Source: Candidatus Latescibacterota bacterium
GTDB taxonomy: Bacteria; Latescibacterota; UBA2968
Direction: 5' to 3'
DNA: 41,683 nucleotides
Assembly: GCA_038279365.1 (NCBI GenBank)
Contig: JAYODI010000053.1
Span: 1 to 41,683, forward strand
Shown: positions 20,227 to 24,889 of the stretch, piece after piece
Layout: every line of letters starts with the position of its first letter
Position numbering within the stretch: position 1 is the stretch's first letter
The notes under the pieces: generated by a model
Databases searched by the model: none
Told to the model about the DNA's origin: nothing
What the model saw: the letters and a program-made list of their open reading frames with translations, nothing else
Translations under genes and position numbers: made by a program

Positions 20227-20721
20227 TTAAGGAGATGTGTGATACATGCTTGGAATGTGGTGTTTGAGGTTTTCTATCGGTAAAGTTTTCCAGTGTTCTG
20301 GGCGATGTAGTGCGCCCCAAATACCGCCCAAAGTTCCTCCAACGATGCCTCCGCCCAAAATAGAAAGCAGTGCTTTGTTGCCGCTGCGGTTGTCCCAATC
20401 ATCCCAGTTTTCAATGAGACCTGCAGAGACAAGTCCACCTACCAACAAGGCACCTTTCCAGGCTTTGGATGTGATACGCTGGCCAATGGGTTGTACGCCT
20501 AAGCTGAGTTCGAGCTTGGATATGGTGTTGATGGGTATGTGTGTGCGTGGGGTGATGAAAAGTGTATCGGCCTTGATGCGCATAATTTGTCCTGTAACGG
20601 GATTAGAAAAAACAGTTGGCGCAGTTATTCGAACGCGGCTGTCTGTGGATAGGGGGGGAATATCTTCTGCAAAGGTTTGCCAAGGCAGAATGAGTAAGGA
20701 TATAAGGGAGAAGAGTTTCAT
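20227..20721 (-). CDS. Hypothetical exported/membrane protein with glycine-zipper-like helices
   Basis: Signal peptide ending TFA-E, RVRIT...G...DTL small beta domain, GGGIVGGTLGGIWG. Confidence 0.7.
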   Translation of the reverse strand: MKLFSLISLLILPWQTFAEDIPPLSTDSRVRITAPTVFSNPVTGQIMRIKADTLFITPRTHIPINTISKLELSLGVQPIGQRITSKAWKGALLVGGLVSAGLIENWDDWDNRSGNKALLSILGGGIVGGTLGGIWGALHRPEHWKTLPIENLKHHIPSMYHTSP

Positions 20722-20888
20722 TGGCCAGTTCCCGATTGAGCTTGCAAGTTATGGGTTAAATTTGAAAACTTTGTTTTTGCATTTGACCTGATTAATTGCA
20801 AGTTATATGCCAATGTATGGATGGCGTTTTTATAGGATTTTGAGGGCTTTACAGCGATTTTGATGTGGTGCGTATGACACAGGTGGGC

Positions 20889-20936
20889 AAAAAAACAACA
20901 ATCCCCGTTGAGGCGGTTGCTCAACGGGGATTGTTT
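20889..20936 (-). terminator. Intrinsic terminator of the CBS gene
   Basis: AACAATCCCCGTTGAG...CTCAACGGGGATTGTT with A-tract on the left. Confidence 0.8.
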
Positions 20937-20971
20937 GTGTGTTCATCTTGGGGTGCGTTCAAAATGTCTCC

Positions 20972-21412
20972 TTAGGATGCGTGCCAACTGAGTGCAACAT
21001 ACTCTTGGTATTGTGAGACTTGTTCTTCGGTATGTTGAAGTTTGGCTTTTACAAGGTCACCAATTGAAATAATGCCTAAGAGTTGGTCATTTTCGACAAC
21101 TGGCATATGCCTAAAACGGCCTTCTGTCATTTCAGTCATGACGTATTCGATATCTTGATTTGGGGTACCCATCACGATATTGCGGGTCATTATGCTGTCT
21201 ACACGTGTTTTTTGTAAGTTTTTGCCTTGATACACGGCTCGCATAATGTCGCGTTCGGTAATGATGCCTGCCAATTGCCCCTGTTCACCGCGAATAAGCA
21301 AGGCACCAACTTTATTTTCTACAAGTGCAGATAAGGCCACGGACAGAGTATGTTGTGGGGCAATGGTAATGACGCGGCTGCCTTTGCTGTCTAATATATC
21401 TTGTATGGTCAT
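20972..21412 (-). CDS. Stand-alone CBS-pair (Bateman) domain protein
   Basis: VGALL, GIITERD, IMT, RFRHMPVV, GIISIGDLVK; AGGAG SD before ATG 21412. Confidence 0.92.
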   Translation of the reverse strand: MTIQDILDSKGSRVITIAPQHTLSVALSALVENKVGALLIRGEQGQLAGIITERDIMRAVYQGKNLQKTRVDSIMTRNIVMGTPNQDIEYVMTEMTEGRFRHMPVVENDQLLGIISIGDLVKAKLQHTEEQVSQYQEYVALSWHAS

Positions 21413-21450
21413 AGATAAGCTCCTGTTGGGGACAGGATTGTTGGAGACAA

Positions 21451-21493
21451 ATAAAAATATGTGCGGCTCCACCAGTCGTGCTGATGGAGCCGC
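21451..21493 (-). promoter_or_regulatory. Attenuator/terminator-like hairpin in the CBS gene leader
   Basis: Minus strand GCGGCTCCATCAG-CACGA-CTGGTGGAGCCGC then ACATATTTTTAT; its first base is the last base of the MPPGCL stop codon. Confidence 0.6.
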
Positions 21494-21513
21494 TATAAAC
21501 AGCCAGGTGGCAT
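21493..21513 (-). CDS. Candidate leader peptide MPPGCL
   Basis: GAGGAGG-CGACT-ATG CCA CCT GGC TGT TTA TAG. Confidence 0.55.
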   Translation of the reverse strand: MPPGCL

Positions 21514-21704
21514 AGTCGCCTCCTCTTGTGTGCAGCTATTTACCATAAATCTGTTTAGGAAACCTGCGCCTTGATGATACGATGATAACAAATGTTTGGG
21601 GTTTGATGATAACCCATTTTGATTTCGTAACTCAGGTGCGTCATTTTAGATTTTGGATGCTGCGTGTATGTTTACCGAGCCTTTGACGTGTTACTATAAC
21701 GGTA

Positions 21705-21725
21705 CTACGTGTCGGGACGCGGCAA
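21705..21725 (-). CDS. Candidate minigene MPRPDT
   Basis: AAAAGGAG-AGACACA-TTG CCG CGT CCC GAC ACG TAG. Confidence 0.55.
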   Translation of the reverse strand: MPRPDT

Positions 21726-21774
21726 TGTGTCTCTCCTTTTAAGAGGTGTTCTTTGATTGTCAAAATACAGGTCT

Positions 21775-21798
21775 TTAAGTGTCAGGACGTGTTGGCAC
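21775..21798 (-). CDS. Candidate minigene MPTRPDT
   Basis: AAGGGAGG-CCTC-GTG CCA ACA CGT CCT GAC ACT TAA. Confidence 0.6.
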   Translation of the reverse strand: MPTRPDT

Positions 21799-21908
21799 GA
21801 GGCCTCCCTTCTTACACCAGATTTACTGTATTGCAACAAGCGTTGTTCTTATATCACCTAAAAAACCTTTTTTTACGTCACTTACTTTGACTGTCTCAGT
21901 AGACCGCT

Positions 21909-21932
21909 TTAAGTATCAGGACGTGGCGACAT
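21909..21932 (-). CDS. Candidate minigene MSPRPDT
   Basis: AAGGGAGG-CCCGTTCT-ATG TCG CCA CGT CCT GAT ACT TAA. Confidence 0.65.
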   Translation of the reverse strand: MSPRPDT

Positions 21933-22012
21933 AGAACGGGCCTCCCTTCGTTATTTTGGATGGACTGCGTTGTTTCAAACAGGCTTTAATGATCACCTGC
22001 TCTATGAAACCA

Positions 22013-22040
22013 AATATAAGCACTTCAAAAATTTAGTCAA
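22013..22040 (-). promoter_or_regulatory. Sigma70-like promoter for the minigene/CBS transcript
   Basis: Minus strand TTGACT-N16-TATATT with AT-rich upstream DNA. Confidence 0.5.
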
Positions 22041-22268
22041 GGGGTGTTAATTTGTTATATTATTATTGCTAATGAAAAACTCTTTGAGATTTTAAATTCT
22101 ATTTGAGTTCGTTTTTGCTGTTTGATGGCTAAGTGAGGCACAATCAAGTATTTCTGCAAAGATTTTATGTGGTCTTATTTTTTTTGGGGGGGGATAGAAA
22201 TTTTTTTAAAAATATTTTTTATGGGTGTTGTTGCGTAGATTATTTTTGCGATTTTGAGGAATAGACAT

Positions 22269-22300
22269 AAAAAATGCCCCGAAAGTAATTTCGGGGCATT
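22269..22300 (-). terminator. Intrinsic terminator of the metalloprotease gene
   Basis: AATGCCCCGAAA-GTAA-TTTCGGGGCATT with A-tract on the left. Confidence 0.85.
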
Positions 22301-22318
22301 GGCGTGACCATTTTTTGA

Positions 22319-24889
22319 TTAGTTGTTATCTGTGGCTTGTTCGATGAGGTGTAAAACGTAACCGGTGTGGGCTTGGGTGCTCGCATCGGTTGTTTTTTTG
22401 TCTTTGAGTAGGGTTTGGATGTTTTTAAGTGTGTAGAGTGCCACTGCGTGCGATGGGTAACCGTAGTTGTTGTCTGGGGTGAGTATTTTGGACAGGCGTT
22501 GCACATATTCAACTTGAAGGTTTTGCCGAAATGAATTGACGGAGCTTTCTGCATCGGCTTTGAAGATGGCGTTGGTGAGGTCTGCCATCATATTGGGTAG
22601 GGTATATTCATTGCCATAAAGGGCCGAATCGACAATGCGTGTTTGTACACGGTGATGTAACAAGTAGCTGAGTATGGATGTTTGGATGTTGAGAATGCGG
22701 TCGTGAATTTTGGGGTCGTCGGTGTTGGAGAAACCTCTGCGCTGTTGTTGCAAGTGGTTGTAAAGGCCATTGGGTGTGTCGTAGGCGCGGGGTGCAAATA
22801 TGTATTTGGAGAGCGCATCCATCGCGCGTTTTTGATCGGATAGGGCTACGGGTATAAGGGGTTGGGTGGCACCGGCTTGTCCGATTACGGCGCGGTCGAC
22901 ATAAACGCCGCCGATATAACGTGAAATGATGGTGCCTGCAATCATTTGCTGGCCTGTGAGAATGAGGTATGCATCTTGGAGTTCTTGATAGGTGTTGCCT
23001 TGGGTGTTGTATTTGTCTTGCACTTGGTTCATGACGGTGTTGACCAATTCAAAGCGTTCAACGGCTTGCCCAATGGCATCATCACTGAGGTCATAAAGCA
23101 TGACGCGCGGATCAATACCACGGTTGGGTGAGCGCATGTCGTCGGCATCGTTGCCAAACATTAGTTCGGGTTCTGTGGAGCGAGATAGAATTTTTTCGAG
23201 GTGTTCTTGTTCGGCTTTTTCATTTTTCGCTGTTGATGAATATCCAAATTCTATGGCCCACAAATCGTAGGGACCAGGGCGTGTGGTATAGTATTCACCT
23301 TGTTTTTGTGTGGGCAATGCAAAGTTGATAGCGGGGTAATCCATGACTGATCCGGTTAGCCCCATTTTTTTTGTGCGAGATTTGTCATGAATGTTTGCCA
23401 AGCTTTGCATTTGGCTGGCTTTCATATTGTGGTTAAGACCCAGCGTGTGACCTATTTCATGTAAGATGAGGTAATGGAGACTGTCTTTGAGCAGGTCATC
23501 AACACTCAGTTTGGATGCACCGGATACGCGCAAAGCTTGTGCGCCAAACAGGTTGGATTCTTGAAGGGTGTATCCAAGTGAACAGATTAAAGGATCTTGT
23601 GTTTCAAATGGCTCTTGCAAATGAAGTGCTGCAGTTTTAAAGAGGTGGCCTTGGTCTAAACGGCTGGTGAGAAAGGCAAATTCGAGCATGACATCGGCAC
23701 CAATAATTTCGCCGGTGCGGGGGTTGACAAAGCTGGGGCCATAGCCACCAAATGGGGGTTGTGGCGATGAGGTCCAGCGCAAGACGTTGTAGCGAATGTC
23801 ACCGGCATCCCAATCGGCATCATCGGGTTGTTCTTTGACTTCGACGGCGTTTTTGAACCCTGCGGCTTCAAATGCAATATTCCAGTTGAGGGCCGCTTTT
23901 TTGATGGTGGGGCGCAGTTCTTTTGGGGTGGTGTTTTCGATCCACCACGTAATGGGTTTTACGGGTTCGGATAATTTGGCATTGGGATCTTTTTTCTTTA
24001 AATGCCAGCGATGAATGAGATCGCGATAAGGTGTGGCGCTTGTGGATGTGAGGTCGGTGACACGGGTGGTAAAATAACCAATGCGGGGGTCGTCAAAACG
24101 AGGCTGGTAGTCGTTTTTGGGCATTTCGATGAGGGTGTGGCGCATGGTAATGGTGACATTGCGTGCATCTGTAATGCCTGCACCACCACCTTTGGGTGTG
24201 GGGTTTTCATAGGTATATGCAATGACCAAGTCGGTATTTTGTGGATAGTTTTTAATGGAGCGTGTTTTGGTTTTTTCTTTGCTGAGTTTGCCCAGCGTAA
24301 ATCCTTTTTCACCTTGTGTGTGGTTGATGCGGTGTAAGGTTTCGGAAAAGAAGATGTCGTTTGCTTTGATGAGGTAGGCGTGTGTGGAATCGTCATAGAC
24401 TTCTATTTTTTCTGAGGCGAGAATAGATGGGCTGATGTTTGCGTGGGCGGCTTTGCTAAGGGCGTTTTGTGGGTCAAAATAATACGATGTATTTTCTGAA
24501 ACGATTTCGATGCGGTTAAAATGTTTTTGAATGGAGAAGACGCGGTTGTCTCTAAAGTTGCCTCGAAAATGGCCTGCGGCTAAGACCCCATCCAATGTTT
24601 GAGTGAAGTAGATGTATTCTTTGCCAATTTGATTTTCTTTGATGAGCAGTTGCAGGTCACCTGTTGTGGTGTCTTGATAAACGGTGAACAGGCCTTTAAA
24701 GGCGTGGCTGGATTCTGTTAGATCTGCAAGAGTTTTCTTTTTGTCTTTTTTATCTTCTTTTTTTTCAACTTTGGCCGAATCGGGTTTGGTTGTGGTGAGT
24801 GTGTCGGATGATGTGGGTGTGGGCTGTTTGTCTTGTGCATCAAGCGGGAGTGTGAGACTTAAGAGTAATATGAAAATAAGTTGTGACAT
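22319..24889 (-). CDS. Exported zinc-dependent metalloprotease (EcxA-like, DUF5117/DUF4953 type)
   Basis: HEIGHTLGLNHN, Met-turn SVMDY, PRFDDPRIGYF, VNPRTGEII; AGGAG SD and signal peptide. Confidence 0.9.
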   Translation of the reverse strand: MSQLIFILLLSLTLPLDAQDKQPTPTSSDTLTTTKPDSAKVEKKEDKKDKKKTLADLTESSHAFKGLFTVYQDTTTGDLQLLIKENQIGKEYIYFTQTLDGVLAAGHFRGNFRDNRVFSIQKHFNRIEIVSENTSYYFDPQNALSKAAHANISPSILASEKIEVYDDSTHAYLIKANDIFFSETLHRINHTQGEKGFTLGKLSKEKTKTRSIKNYPQNTDLVIAYTYENPTPKGGGAGITDARNVTITMRHTLIEMPKNDYQPRFDDPRIGYFTTRVTDLTSTSATPYRDLIHRWHLKKKDPNAKLSEPVKPITWWIENTTPKELRPTIKKAALNWNIAFEAAGFKNAVEVKEQPDDADWDAGDIRYNVLRWTSSPQPPFGGYGPSFVNPRTGEIIGADVMLEFAFLTSRLDQGHLFKTAALHLQEPFETQDPLICSLGYTLQESNLFGAQALRVSGASKLSVDDLLKDSLHYLILHEIGHTLGLNHNMKASQMQSLANIHDKSRTKKMGLTGSVMDYPAINFALPTQKQGEYYTTRPGPYDLWAIEFGYSSTAKNEKAEQEHLEKILSRSTEPELMFGNDADDMRSPNRGIDPRVMLYDLSDDAIGQAVERFELVNTVMNQVQDKYNTQGNTYQELQDAYLILTGQQMIAGTIISRYIGGVYVDRAVIGQAGATQPLIPVALSDQKRAMDALSKYIFAPRAYDTPNGLYNHLQQQRRGFSNTDDPKIHDRILNIQTSILSYLLHHRVQTRIVDSALYGNEYTLPNMMADLTNAIFKADAESSVNSFRQNLQVEYVQRLSKILTPDNNYGYPSHAVALYTLKNIQTLLKDKKTTDASTQAHTGYVLHLIEQATDNN

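Follow-up and report, generated by a model that had tools for sequence, protein, structure and literature searches.

The question raised by this locus is what lies on the minus strand ahead of a small gene for a stand-alone CBS-pair protein in a Candidatus Latescibacterota bacterium (GenBank assembly GCA_038279365.1), whose contig JAYODI010000053.1 supplied the 41,683-nucleotide (nt) stretch of DNA analysed here (the window). An earlier note on this DNA had described a promoter followed by three minigenes between positions 21,705 and 22,040, each led by a strong Shine-Dalgarno (SD) sequence and each encoding a peptide that ends in RPDT-stop, and had proposed that they form an arrest-peptide leader controlling the CBS-pair gene. 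The present analysis indicates that the region from 22040 to 21450 (minus strand) is most likely a transcribed leader of about 550 nt belonging to the CBS-pair gene, and that this leader, on balance, probably acts as a ribosome-mediated transcription attenuator of that gene with proline-containing sensor minigenes. The element most plausibly gating the gene is a fourth minigene placed at an intrinsic terminator, not the RPDT copies. The finding is filed among the leader-peptide attenuators, a known kind, in a new form.

In what follows, ORF-A denotes the RPDT-type minigenes (ORF, open reading frame), ORF-B the minigene that begins with MPP and adjoins the terminator of the leader, and ORF-C a short ORF after the CBS gene. 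The genome of the window (6.03 Mb) is G000, and G001 and G002 are relatives from the same genus, g1, represented by metagenome-assembled genomes that are 88-90% complete. The genera g1, g2, g3, g5 and g6 belong to family f1 of Candidatus Latescibacterota, to which f2 is a sister family.

Organization of the leader

The leader opens with a sigma-70-type promoter, TTGACT-N16-TATATT (22013..22040, minus strand), which matches 10 of 12 consensus positions and is the best-scoring promoter-like site of the region, where the scan returned 7 such sites compared to 3.7 +/- 2.2 in shuffles. Both its -35 and -10 boxes are kept in G001, G002, eleven g5 genomes and G007 (genus g6). Re-reading the minus strand showed three SD-led minigenes after this promoter, as had been claimed. 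Copy 1 (21909..21948, minus strand; ATG at 21932 to TAA at 21909) encodes MSPRPDT and reads AAGGGAGG-N8-ATG TCG CCA CGT CCT GAT ACT TAA, while copy 2 (21775..21811, minus strand; GTG at 21798 to TAA at 21775), which is also present in the metagenome contig L186, encodes MPTRPDT and reads AAGGGAGG-N4-GTG CCA ACA CGT CCT GAC ACT TAA. Copy 3 (21705..21737, minus strand; TTG at 21725 to TAG at 21705) encodes MPRPDT and reads AAGGAG-N7-TTG CCG CGT CCC GAC ACG TAG. The start codons thus run in the order ATG, GTG, TTG, and the differences within the RPDT-stop block are synonymous, all of them at third codon positions, both of which agree with the earlier description; what that description had missed is that the repeat reaches past the ORF-A stop, forming a 41-nt family in which copies 1 and 2 are 78% identical. 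When the window was searched with a degenerate pattern for R-P-D-T-stop, three matches were found, compared to none in any of 100 shuffles. Across the whole genome there are five matches, the two outside the leader sitting within long open frames with neither SD nor start. These two (on C12 and C141), together with matches to the pattern in G004 and G036, were rejected as chance, all being inside long open frames.

The fourth minigene, ORF-B (21493..21527, minus strand; ATG at 21513 to TAG at 21493), had been overlooked. It encodes MPPGCL, reads AAGAGGAGG-N5-ATG CCA CCT GGC TGT TTA TAG and, like ORF-A, has its SD 4-8 nt from the start codon. The final base of its stop codon is also the first base (21493) of the stem of an intrinsic terminator found by the terminator scan (21450..21493, minus strand), which consists of a 13-bp stem with 9 G-C pairs (21493-21463) followed by ACAUAUUUUUAUUU; the stem ends 50 nt upstream of the CBS-pair gene. 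Changes in the stem are compensated, from G-C to A-U in G001 and from G-C to U-A between G004 and G011, and U-tracts follow the hairpin in g1, g3, g5 and g6. Judging from the length and composition of the stem, the compensated changes and the U-tracts, the leader terminator is real. A consensus fold of the 11 g5 leaders contains 68 pairs; no double change, and so no covariation, was found among them, which makes the fold uninformative. The same terminator scan placed no terminator-like site next to the ORF-A minigenes. A search of 21200-22400 against Rfam 15 at E<=10 returned only 10 weak and unrelated matches and no family, Csr/Rsm RNAs included; the best covariance match in the leader region was the PyrC leader, at 20.5 bits compared to a gathering score of 50.

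Conservation of the MPP minigene and of its distance to the terminator

Orthologues of the CBS-pair protein (E<=1e-20) were identified in 23 of the 53 genomes of the order, and the regions upstream of them were read. Across the 25 CBS-homologue loci read in 22 genomes, an MPP ORF directly precedes a hairpin and the CBS gene at 20 family f1 loci from five genera; it also precedes a CBS remnant in G001 and G002, giving 22 leaders in all. The second CBS paralogue of G007 has no such ORF ahead of it, nor do the CBS genes of f2, the sister family. When CBS homologues from all species genomes were considered, leader ORFs were present at 16 of 80 loci, all of which map by contig coordinates to family f1 genomes among those already read, and at 0 of the remaining 64, which come from many phyla. 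The earlier reading of the interval as the leader of the CBS gene is borne out by the same order of promoter, minigene, terminator and CBS gene before CBS orthologues in five genera and by one RNA contig that bridges leader and CBS gene. No neighbour of the unit is conserved apart from a convergent bipA in g1 and g6.

The ORF-B peptide is MPPGCL or MPPDCL in g1, MPPGCY in g6 and MPPGCYWRPLRT or MPPGYFWRSLRT in g3, and the g5 forms comprise MPPINLTR, MPPINLLR, MPPENLSR and MPPT[NH]LCGSD.... The g2 form is about 27 residues long (MPPGSLCG... in G003, MPPGSPSG... in G008); its end either meets the start codon of the CBS gene or overlaps it, as ATGA in G003. At these two g2 loci (L078 in G003, L082 in G008) the hairpin is without a U-tract. 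Since the MPP ORF meets or overlaps the CBS start there and the hairpin is without that tract, the arrangement suggests that translational coupling takes the place of transcription termination in g2.

When the 100 nt after the ORF-B ATG were folded, the first paired base fell at nt 19-21 counted from that ATG in 20 of the 22 leaders. The exceptions are G012, where it falls at 18, and G003, where it falls at 14 in the minimum free energy structure with the main stem beginning at 20. The stop codon has five placements: it touches the stem at codon 7 (g1 and g6), falls within the 5' arm at codon 9, lies in the loop at codon 13 or 15, comes past the hairpin, or coincides with the CBS start (g2); the long forms stop at about codon 28-34 or overlap the CBS ATG. 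In addition, a one-base indel between g1 and g5 (TTTAT-A-GCGGCTCC) shifts the ORF-B frame. Given these varied stops and this frame shift, only the SD-ATG-Pro-Pro segment and its spacing to the stem are kept. Motifs that depend on elongation factor P (EF-P) consist of two consecutive prolines ahead of a residue such as G, D, P, W or N, and PPT and PPI are weak EF-P motifs. The ORF-B peptide begins with MPPG or MPPD in g1, g2, g3 and g6 and with MPPT, MPPI or MPPE in g5, and G000 carries one efp gene (PF09285 at 97.2 bits on C184).

Conservation of the RPDT-type minigenes

Orthologues of ORF-A copy 1 encode MSPRPDT in G001 and L186 and MSPRPDN in G002, and those of copy 3 encode MPRPDT in G001, G002 and L186. 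The full g1 series is MSPRPDT, MPRPDT and MPPGCL followed by the terminator in G001, and MSPRPDN, MPRPDT, MPRPDT and MPPDCL followed by the terminator in G002. In g6, the positional counterpart of copy 3 is MHRPDT in G007, which has a perfect SD and lies 233 nt upstream of ORF-B, while eleven g5 genomes have MLPKPDS with the variants MLPIPDS and MLPKPGS. A twelfth copy of the g5 type, in G019, lies at the very end of a contig and is uninformative on the CBS gene. The consensus across the three genera (g1, g5 and g6) is therefore M-x-P-[R/K]-P-D-[T/S]-stop, with the exceptions PDN, PGS and IPDS found in one copy each; two to three copies per leader occur only in g1. A recurrent g5 match, GGAGGCTATGCCGCCGGGT, was discarded as unrelated, having no terminator and reading like part of a coding gene.

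The substitutions are of the coding type. Among the nine ORF-A copies of g1 and g6, variable columns comprise 6 of 6 third positions, 1 of 6 first positions and 2 of 6 second positions. Between genera, the step from RPDT to KPDS takes three base changes for Arg to Lys (CGT to AAA) and a first-base change for Thr to Ser (ACN to TCR). L186, a metagenome contig of a close relative, shows two synonymous changes compared to the window, namely TCG>TCA in copy 1 and CCT>CCA in ORF-B. ORF-A begins only with ATG, GTG or TTG, ends only with TAA or TAG across 20 copies, and has a length of 6-7 codons. Because third positions vary most and the exchanges of Arg for Lys and Thr for Ser require first-base or multiple changes, ORF-A is under constraint at the level of the peptide, which is kept where the nucleotides are not. 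The earlier note had named conservation of nucleotides without the reading frame as the outcome that would count against it; MHRPDT in g6 and MLPKPDS in g5 show that the frame itself is kept in homologues. It had also proposed a pattern search across related genomes, and a search for an SD followed by ORF-A gave 16 matches in 14 of the 168 genomes of the phylum, 15 of them at this leader and one inside a frame of 260 amino acids (aa); a reversed-pattern control over the same 168 genomes gave 11 matches.

The middle ORF-A copy of G002 combines the 5' context of copy 3 with the 3' context of copy 1, and the spacers that follow G002 copies 1 and 2 are about 66 nt each and nearly identical. Because of these mixed contexts and near-identical spacers, the array fits growth by unequal crossing-over within the repeated ORF. 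A separate observation is that in g1 the sequence AGGUGAYAU after ORF-A copy 1 is complementary to the starts of both kinds of minigene, ORF-A and ORF-B; a counterpart of it was not found in G007.

Representation of the unit in RNA libraries

Sampled words of 21000-22100 were present in 20 listed runs, 7 of which are recorded as RNA, and contigs of four metatranscriptomes from four studies were aligned to the window. The RNA contigs of all four studies lie within 20942-21996, that is, from just past the -10 box to just before the CBS terminator, and in these four runs they do not cover 22008-22500 or 20600-20920. In three runs contigs end at 21988-21996, and contigs begin at 20942 and 20952. 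In three of the four runs the contigs are interrupted at the leader terminator, with edges at 21388-21410 on one side and 21491-21502 on the other, and the fourth has a single contig, 21349-21990, that bridges it. The leader contigs are deeper than the CBS contigs (114.5 compared to 2.8-4.1 in run X12, 5.3 compared to 2.2 in X11, and 3.6-8.7 compared to 2.5 in X14), with the caveat that these depths cannot rank genes. Taken together, these data support, without proving, the predicted transcription of the unit and the view that most of its transcripts stop at the attenuator.

A proposed mechanism

The features of an attenuator that are present here are an SD-led short ORF in the 5' leader and an intrinsic terminator within reach of a ribosome. 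In the proposed mechanism, the core device would be ORF-B, with its perfect SD, its ATG, two proline codons and about 11 nt to the foot of the terminator. A ribosome shields about 17 nt on the 3' side of the first P-site base, according to the available part of PMC6238534. A ribosome initiating on ORF-B would therefore sit just in front of the stem, one slowed at formylmethionine (fMet)-Pro-Pro, with Pro2 or Pro3 in the P site, would touch or open the first pairs of the stem, and one advancing past MPP would melt its 5' arm. The dwell time of the ribosome, or its advance into the stem, could then set whether the hairpin closes behind RNA polymerase and hence whether the CBS gene is transcribed. 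As to the sign of the response, slow Pro-Pro chemistry leading to read-through and CBS expression is modestly favoured over the opposite, in which only a fast ribosome melts the stem, because the spacing is fixed to the proline codons and not to the stop and because the RNA data suggest that termination is the default. The sensed variable may be the efficiency of proline incorporation early in the chain, as set by EF-P activity, by the supply of prolyl-tRNA or by another slowing condition. ORF-A would serve as a second, accessory translated sensor. It too is built around proline, here in the place of the peptidyl donor to Asp, and closes with UAA or UAG; ribosomes on it would probably remodel or protect the long leader upstream of ORF-B.

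Several observations weigh against this mechanism. Within ORF-B, the fourth residue varies (G, D, T, I or E, and A, E or V in the paralogue described below), and codon 2 is CCA in 21 of the 22 leaders, which is more than coding alone explains. A 5-6-nt element upstream of the ORF-B SD is complementary to the stem foot in several genera (mismatched in G001, weak in G008), no convincing antiterminator structure was found in the leaders, and either sign of the response needs a pause of RNA polymerase, which is putative. ORF-A is wanting in 7 of the 22 leaders (G012, G014 and G022, which are g5 genomes with short leaders, together with g2 and g3), and hairpins enclosing its start are predicted in six of eight units, with one z-score below -2 (the eight being -2.58, -0.03, -1.22, -0.17, +0.19, -0.92, -0.51 and +0.20). 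The RNA contigs carry neither strand information nor true transcript ends, and both their breaks and the lack of cover outside 20942-21996 are weak hints. Finally, the leader, ORF-C and both terminators persist in G001 and G002, in which no CBS orthologue was found at E<=1e-20, and a paralogous RNA ends in the same module as the leader without a constant downstream gene.

Alternative explanations

These last two observations give rise to the best surviving alternative, which we consider unlikely though worth pursuing: that the leader is an abundant stand-alone RNA of about 550 nt carrying minigenes, which acts through micro-peptides or in a role at the ribosome or in trans, the CBS gene being reached by read-through. 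The CBS-less leaders thereby also keep in play the polycistron of ultrashort peptides suggested in the earlier note. The CBS-less leaders retain the promoter, the ORF-A copies, ORF-B and the terminator. In G002 the deletion starts immediately past the terminator of the leader and reaches as far as the CBS stop, while G001 retains a remnant consisting of the 5' untranslated region, eight codons and the last ~14 nt, so that the end points of the two deletions differ. The leaders of G001 and G002 are identical at 378 of 551 aligned positions (69%), compared to 45 of 87 (52%) four-fold sites in a neighbouring gene, with the promoter, the ORFs, a 55-nt structured block and the terminator near-invariant. 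The greater depth of the leader contig in X12, subject to the caveat given above, would also fit an RNA of its own.

The paralogous RNA points in the same direction. At C95:10907-11374 in G000 (locus L166/L167) lies a non-coding region of about 470 nt that has 81-85% identity to its counterparts in G001 and G002, is preceded by a sigma-54-like promoter (TGGYAC-N5-TTGCR) and contains a conserved 5-codon ORF (MLFAC or MFFAW). It ends in GGAGG-N5-ATG CCA CCT GCA TGT AAA TAG, encoding MPPACK (MPPECK and MPPVCR in the relatives), and its terminator begins at the same base of the stop codon as in the ORF-B module; a search of this locus against Rfam gave nothing meaningful. In both G000 and G001 it is followed by a QueD-like gene, which scores below the NCBIfam cut-off; in G002 this gene is missing. 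A pattern for the module, run over 53 genomes, matched exactly two loci in each g1 genome and one in G007, and control matches numbered 0. The module of brake and terminator is therefore used beyond the CBS gene, which keeps the stand-alone RNA alive as a reading. Against it, the leader precedes a CBS gene in every other genome examined (the 20 f1 loci), and no partner gene is conserved nearby. Moreover, on the metagenome contig L185 an ORF-B and terminator of the G001 type stand ahead of a CBS gene that is intact, so that the loss in G001 is recent and the CBS-less state says little about long-term selection; on this evidence the CBS gene is polymorphic in the lineage, and it should be remembered that the G001 and G002 assemblies are incomplete. 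In addition, we know of no precedent for released peptides of 6-7 residues acting as effectors.

A somewhat more doubtful explanation is ligand- or drug-dependent arrest, in which the ORF-A peptides would stall at their stop with a small molecule in the tunnel or the peptidyl-transferase centre, as in TnaC, MsrDL and the MAGDIS upstream ORF, the tandem copies raising sensitivity. This is close to the arrest-peptide leader of the earlier note, which had drawn the analogy of RPDT-stop with TnaC. TnaC, a peptide of 24 residues with Pro-stop at its end, depends on tryptophan; its stalled ribosome controls transcription termination, blocking Rho at the rut (Rho utilization) site next to it. ORF-A shares with it a short leader peptide ending at a stop, but differs in its 6-7 residues, its end in Asp-Thr or Asp-Ser followed by the stop, and the absence of a consistent rut-like tract. 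After the last ORF-A copy of g1, cytosine outnumbers guanine, with up to 21 C compared to 6 G in a 60-nt stretch of G001; g5 shows no such excess, and a model of Rho acting at a rut site after ORF-A was dropped because this bias, confined to g1, is not general.

A closer precedent for arrest is the hexapeptide MsrDL (MYLIFM) in the leader of msrD, for which the available part of PMC10314930 describes a block of release in which the ribosome stalled at the stop keeps a Rho-independent terminator from forming. The likeness is considerable, since ORF-B in g1 and g6 is an SD-led ORF of six codons whose stop touches the stem, and ORF-A has 6-7 codons in three genera, is conserved up to its stop and uses only UAA or UAG there. 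MsrDL differs in being a streptococcal macrolide sensor that precedes a resistance gene of the ABC-F type; the peptides here are proline-based, have no link to a drug and precede a CBS pair, and ORF-B runs through the hairpin in other genera, so that the stop is not the fixed point. For ORF-A, arrest at the stop would have no obvious target to occlude, there being no terminator within reach; the 7 leaders missing it keep ORF-B and the CBS gene, single copies end in PDN, PGS and IPDS, and CBS-pair proteins are not known as resistance or catabolic genes. What stands of the earlier proposal is thus the leader of the CBS gene and the conserved peptide; the TnaC analogy does not, there being neither a terminator nor a consistent rut-like tract after ORF-A.

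It is very unlikely that the SD-like segments AAGGGAGG, AAGGAG and GAGGAGG are instead binding sites for CsrA or another protein, in a sponge or a repressed leader in which the frames are incidental. Sites with GGA number four to five over about 550 nt, and a csrA gene that passes the Pfam cut-off is present in G000, but known CsrA sponges carry far more sites, the Rfam search returned no Csr/Rsm RNA, and the reading leaves the kept starts, frames and stops, the third-position variation and the exchanges of Arg for Lys and Thr for Ser unexplained. Chance ORFs in a repeat-containing spacer are hardly credible: under a loose definition the genome contains 2474 SD-led ORFs of 2-14 codons, against which stand the three matches compared to none in 100 shuffles, the conservation at one locus in three genera and the expression of the unit.

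Relation to known attenuators and significance

The proposed attenuator can also be compared to systems in which proline codons or ultrashort ORFs act on a transcript. Polyproline- and EF-P-dependent coupling to a terminator is known for mgtP in the mgtCBR leader of Salmonella. In an Escherichia coli reporter, a polyproline stall upstream of the pyrL terminator lowered expression 26-fold without EF-P and less than 2-fold with it, according to the available part of PMC5021804. The present leader resembles such EF-P-coupled terminators in its consecutive proline codons upstream of a terminator and in the efp gene of G000. It is unlike the engineered PPPPPP reporter in having two prolines only, directly after fMet and 19-21 nt from the stem.

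In pyrBI itself, the leader ORF (pyrL) has 44 codons, polymerase pausing is sensitive to UTP and a closely following ribosome prevents termination. The g3 and g5 leader ORFs likewise run into the 5' arm of the terminator, but no U-rich pause tract was identified in this leader. The MgtL leader of mgtA is rich in proline and acidic residues and senses Mg2+ and proline through destabilization of the ribosome, and CBS modules occur in Mg2+ transporters. ORF-A shares with MgtL the short leader ORF and the alternation of Pro and Asp near the N-terminus; it differs in having a basic residue and one third of the length, and no Mg2+ transporter lies downstream. The bar minigenes of phage lambda act via peptidyl-tRNA and the ribosome and not via the peptide; their toxicity requires that peptidyl-tRNA hydrolase be limiting, and they are not known to serve as leaders. 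They are comparable as ultrashort SD-led ORFs of few codons.

Leader-peptide attenuators are textbook devices, nearly all of them described from a few cultured phyla, and they use runs of one codon or drug-sensing peptides. In this uncultured phylum the design is compact, combining two prolines after the start at a fixed distance from a terminator with an array of hexa- and heptapeptide minigenes. No paper was found on an RPDT/KPDS minigene family or on an fMet-Pro-Pro leader at a fixed terminator distance, in a search that did not include the peptides by name and in which subscription journals were outside the scope. Should the proline brake function as proposed, it would report naturally on the status of EF-P or prolyl-tRNA and could easily be ported into reporters, and the RPDT/KPDS peptides would, if the reading is true, be among the shortest conserved regulatory peptides known. 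The leader is also the first clue to the function of a stand-alone CBS-pair protein that is widespread and whose synthesis appears tied to the state of translation. The presence of the module on a sigma-54-driven RNA suggests, again if true, a lineage-wide dependence of RNA 3' ends and CBS-pair output on the chemistry of early elongation and termination. The broadest version of the proposal is put forward only tentatively: that these are a new class of cis-acting micro-ORFs with the ribosome as sensor, in which an x-P-[R/K]-P-D-[T/S]-stop peptide, single or in tandem array, accompanies an fMet-Pro-Pro brake ORF at a fixed terminator distance, the brake module also closing a sigma-54-driven RNA and the CBS-pair protein perhaps being a translation-linked energy sensor.

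Other features of the locus

The CBS-pair gene (20972..21412, minus strand) encodes 146 aa with two stretches matching PF00571 (E 7.9e-24). Domain searches found no transporter domain in the protein, and no NCBIfam model matched above its cut-off (the mgtE model reached 24.3 bits compared to a cut-off of 232.75). The nearest solved structure is 3fhm (Atu1752), of unknown function, and relatives at 38-49% identity occur in many phyla. Its matches in the PDB include archaeal four-CBS proteins, 9znf among them. Archaeal four-CBS proteins are described as ribosome hibernation factors, with 9znf cited, in the available part of PMC13454478; by analogy, a link of the present protein to ribosome hibernation is a lead only. 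Part of the CBS ribosome-binding site falls in a small hairpin, UCCUGU-CCCCA-ACAGGA (21421..21437, minus strand), which is kept in G001 and in L185/L186.

Within the leader, between the last RPDT minigene and ORF-B, lies a block without an Rfam match (21577..21631, minus strand) that is highly conserved among G000, G001 and G002 and has an inverted repeat (GYUACG...CGUAKC) around a GGGU...ACCC hairpin; a third small hairpin occurs within it in G001 and G002. The block could be a three-way junction, or an element that binds a ligand or a protein. Upstream of the leader, the adjoining gene encodes an 869-aa DUF4953 Met-zincin and has a terminator-like hairpin of its own at 22300-22273, in keeping with the earlier statement that this protease gene is insulated by its own terminator.

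ORF-C (20921..20972, minus strand; TTG at 20962 to TGA at 20921) directly follows the CBS stop as AAGGAG-N6-TTG and encodes the 13-codon peptide MNAPQDEHTNNPR, its last codons forming the 5' arm of the operon terminator, a bidirectional structure with a 16-bp stem identified by the terminator scan (20897..20935, minus strand). Short SD-led ORFs occupy the same position in G001 (MDIPQNEDINNPR), G002 (MKVPAMKKIKYPR), G007 (MDQPSHTI) and 14 g5 genomes (for example MSEELPDKKVFGC and MDSSLSPDQ); the arrangement is kept and the peptides are poorly conserved. Just past this terminator, at 20797-20812 (minus strand), the sequence TGGCAT-N5-TTGCA matches the sigma-54-type promoter consensus and is kept in G001 and G002; it presumably drives a minus-strand ORF of 164 aa at 20721-20227 that has no Pfam match.

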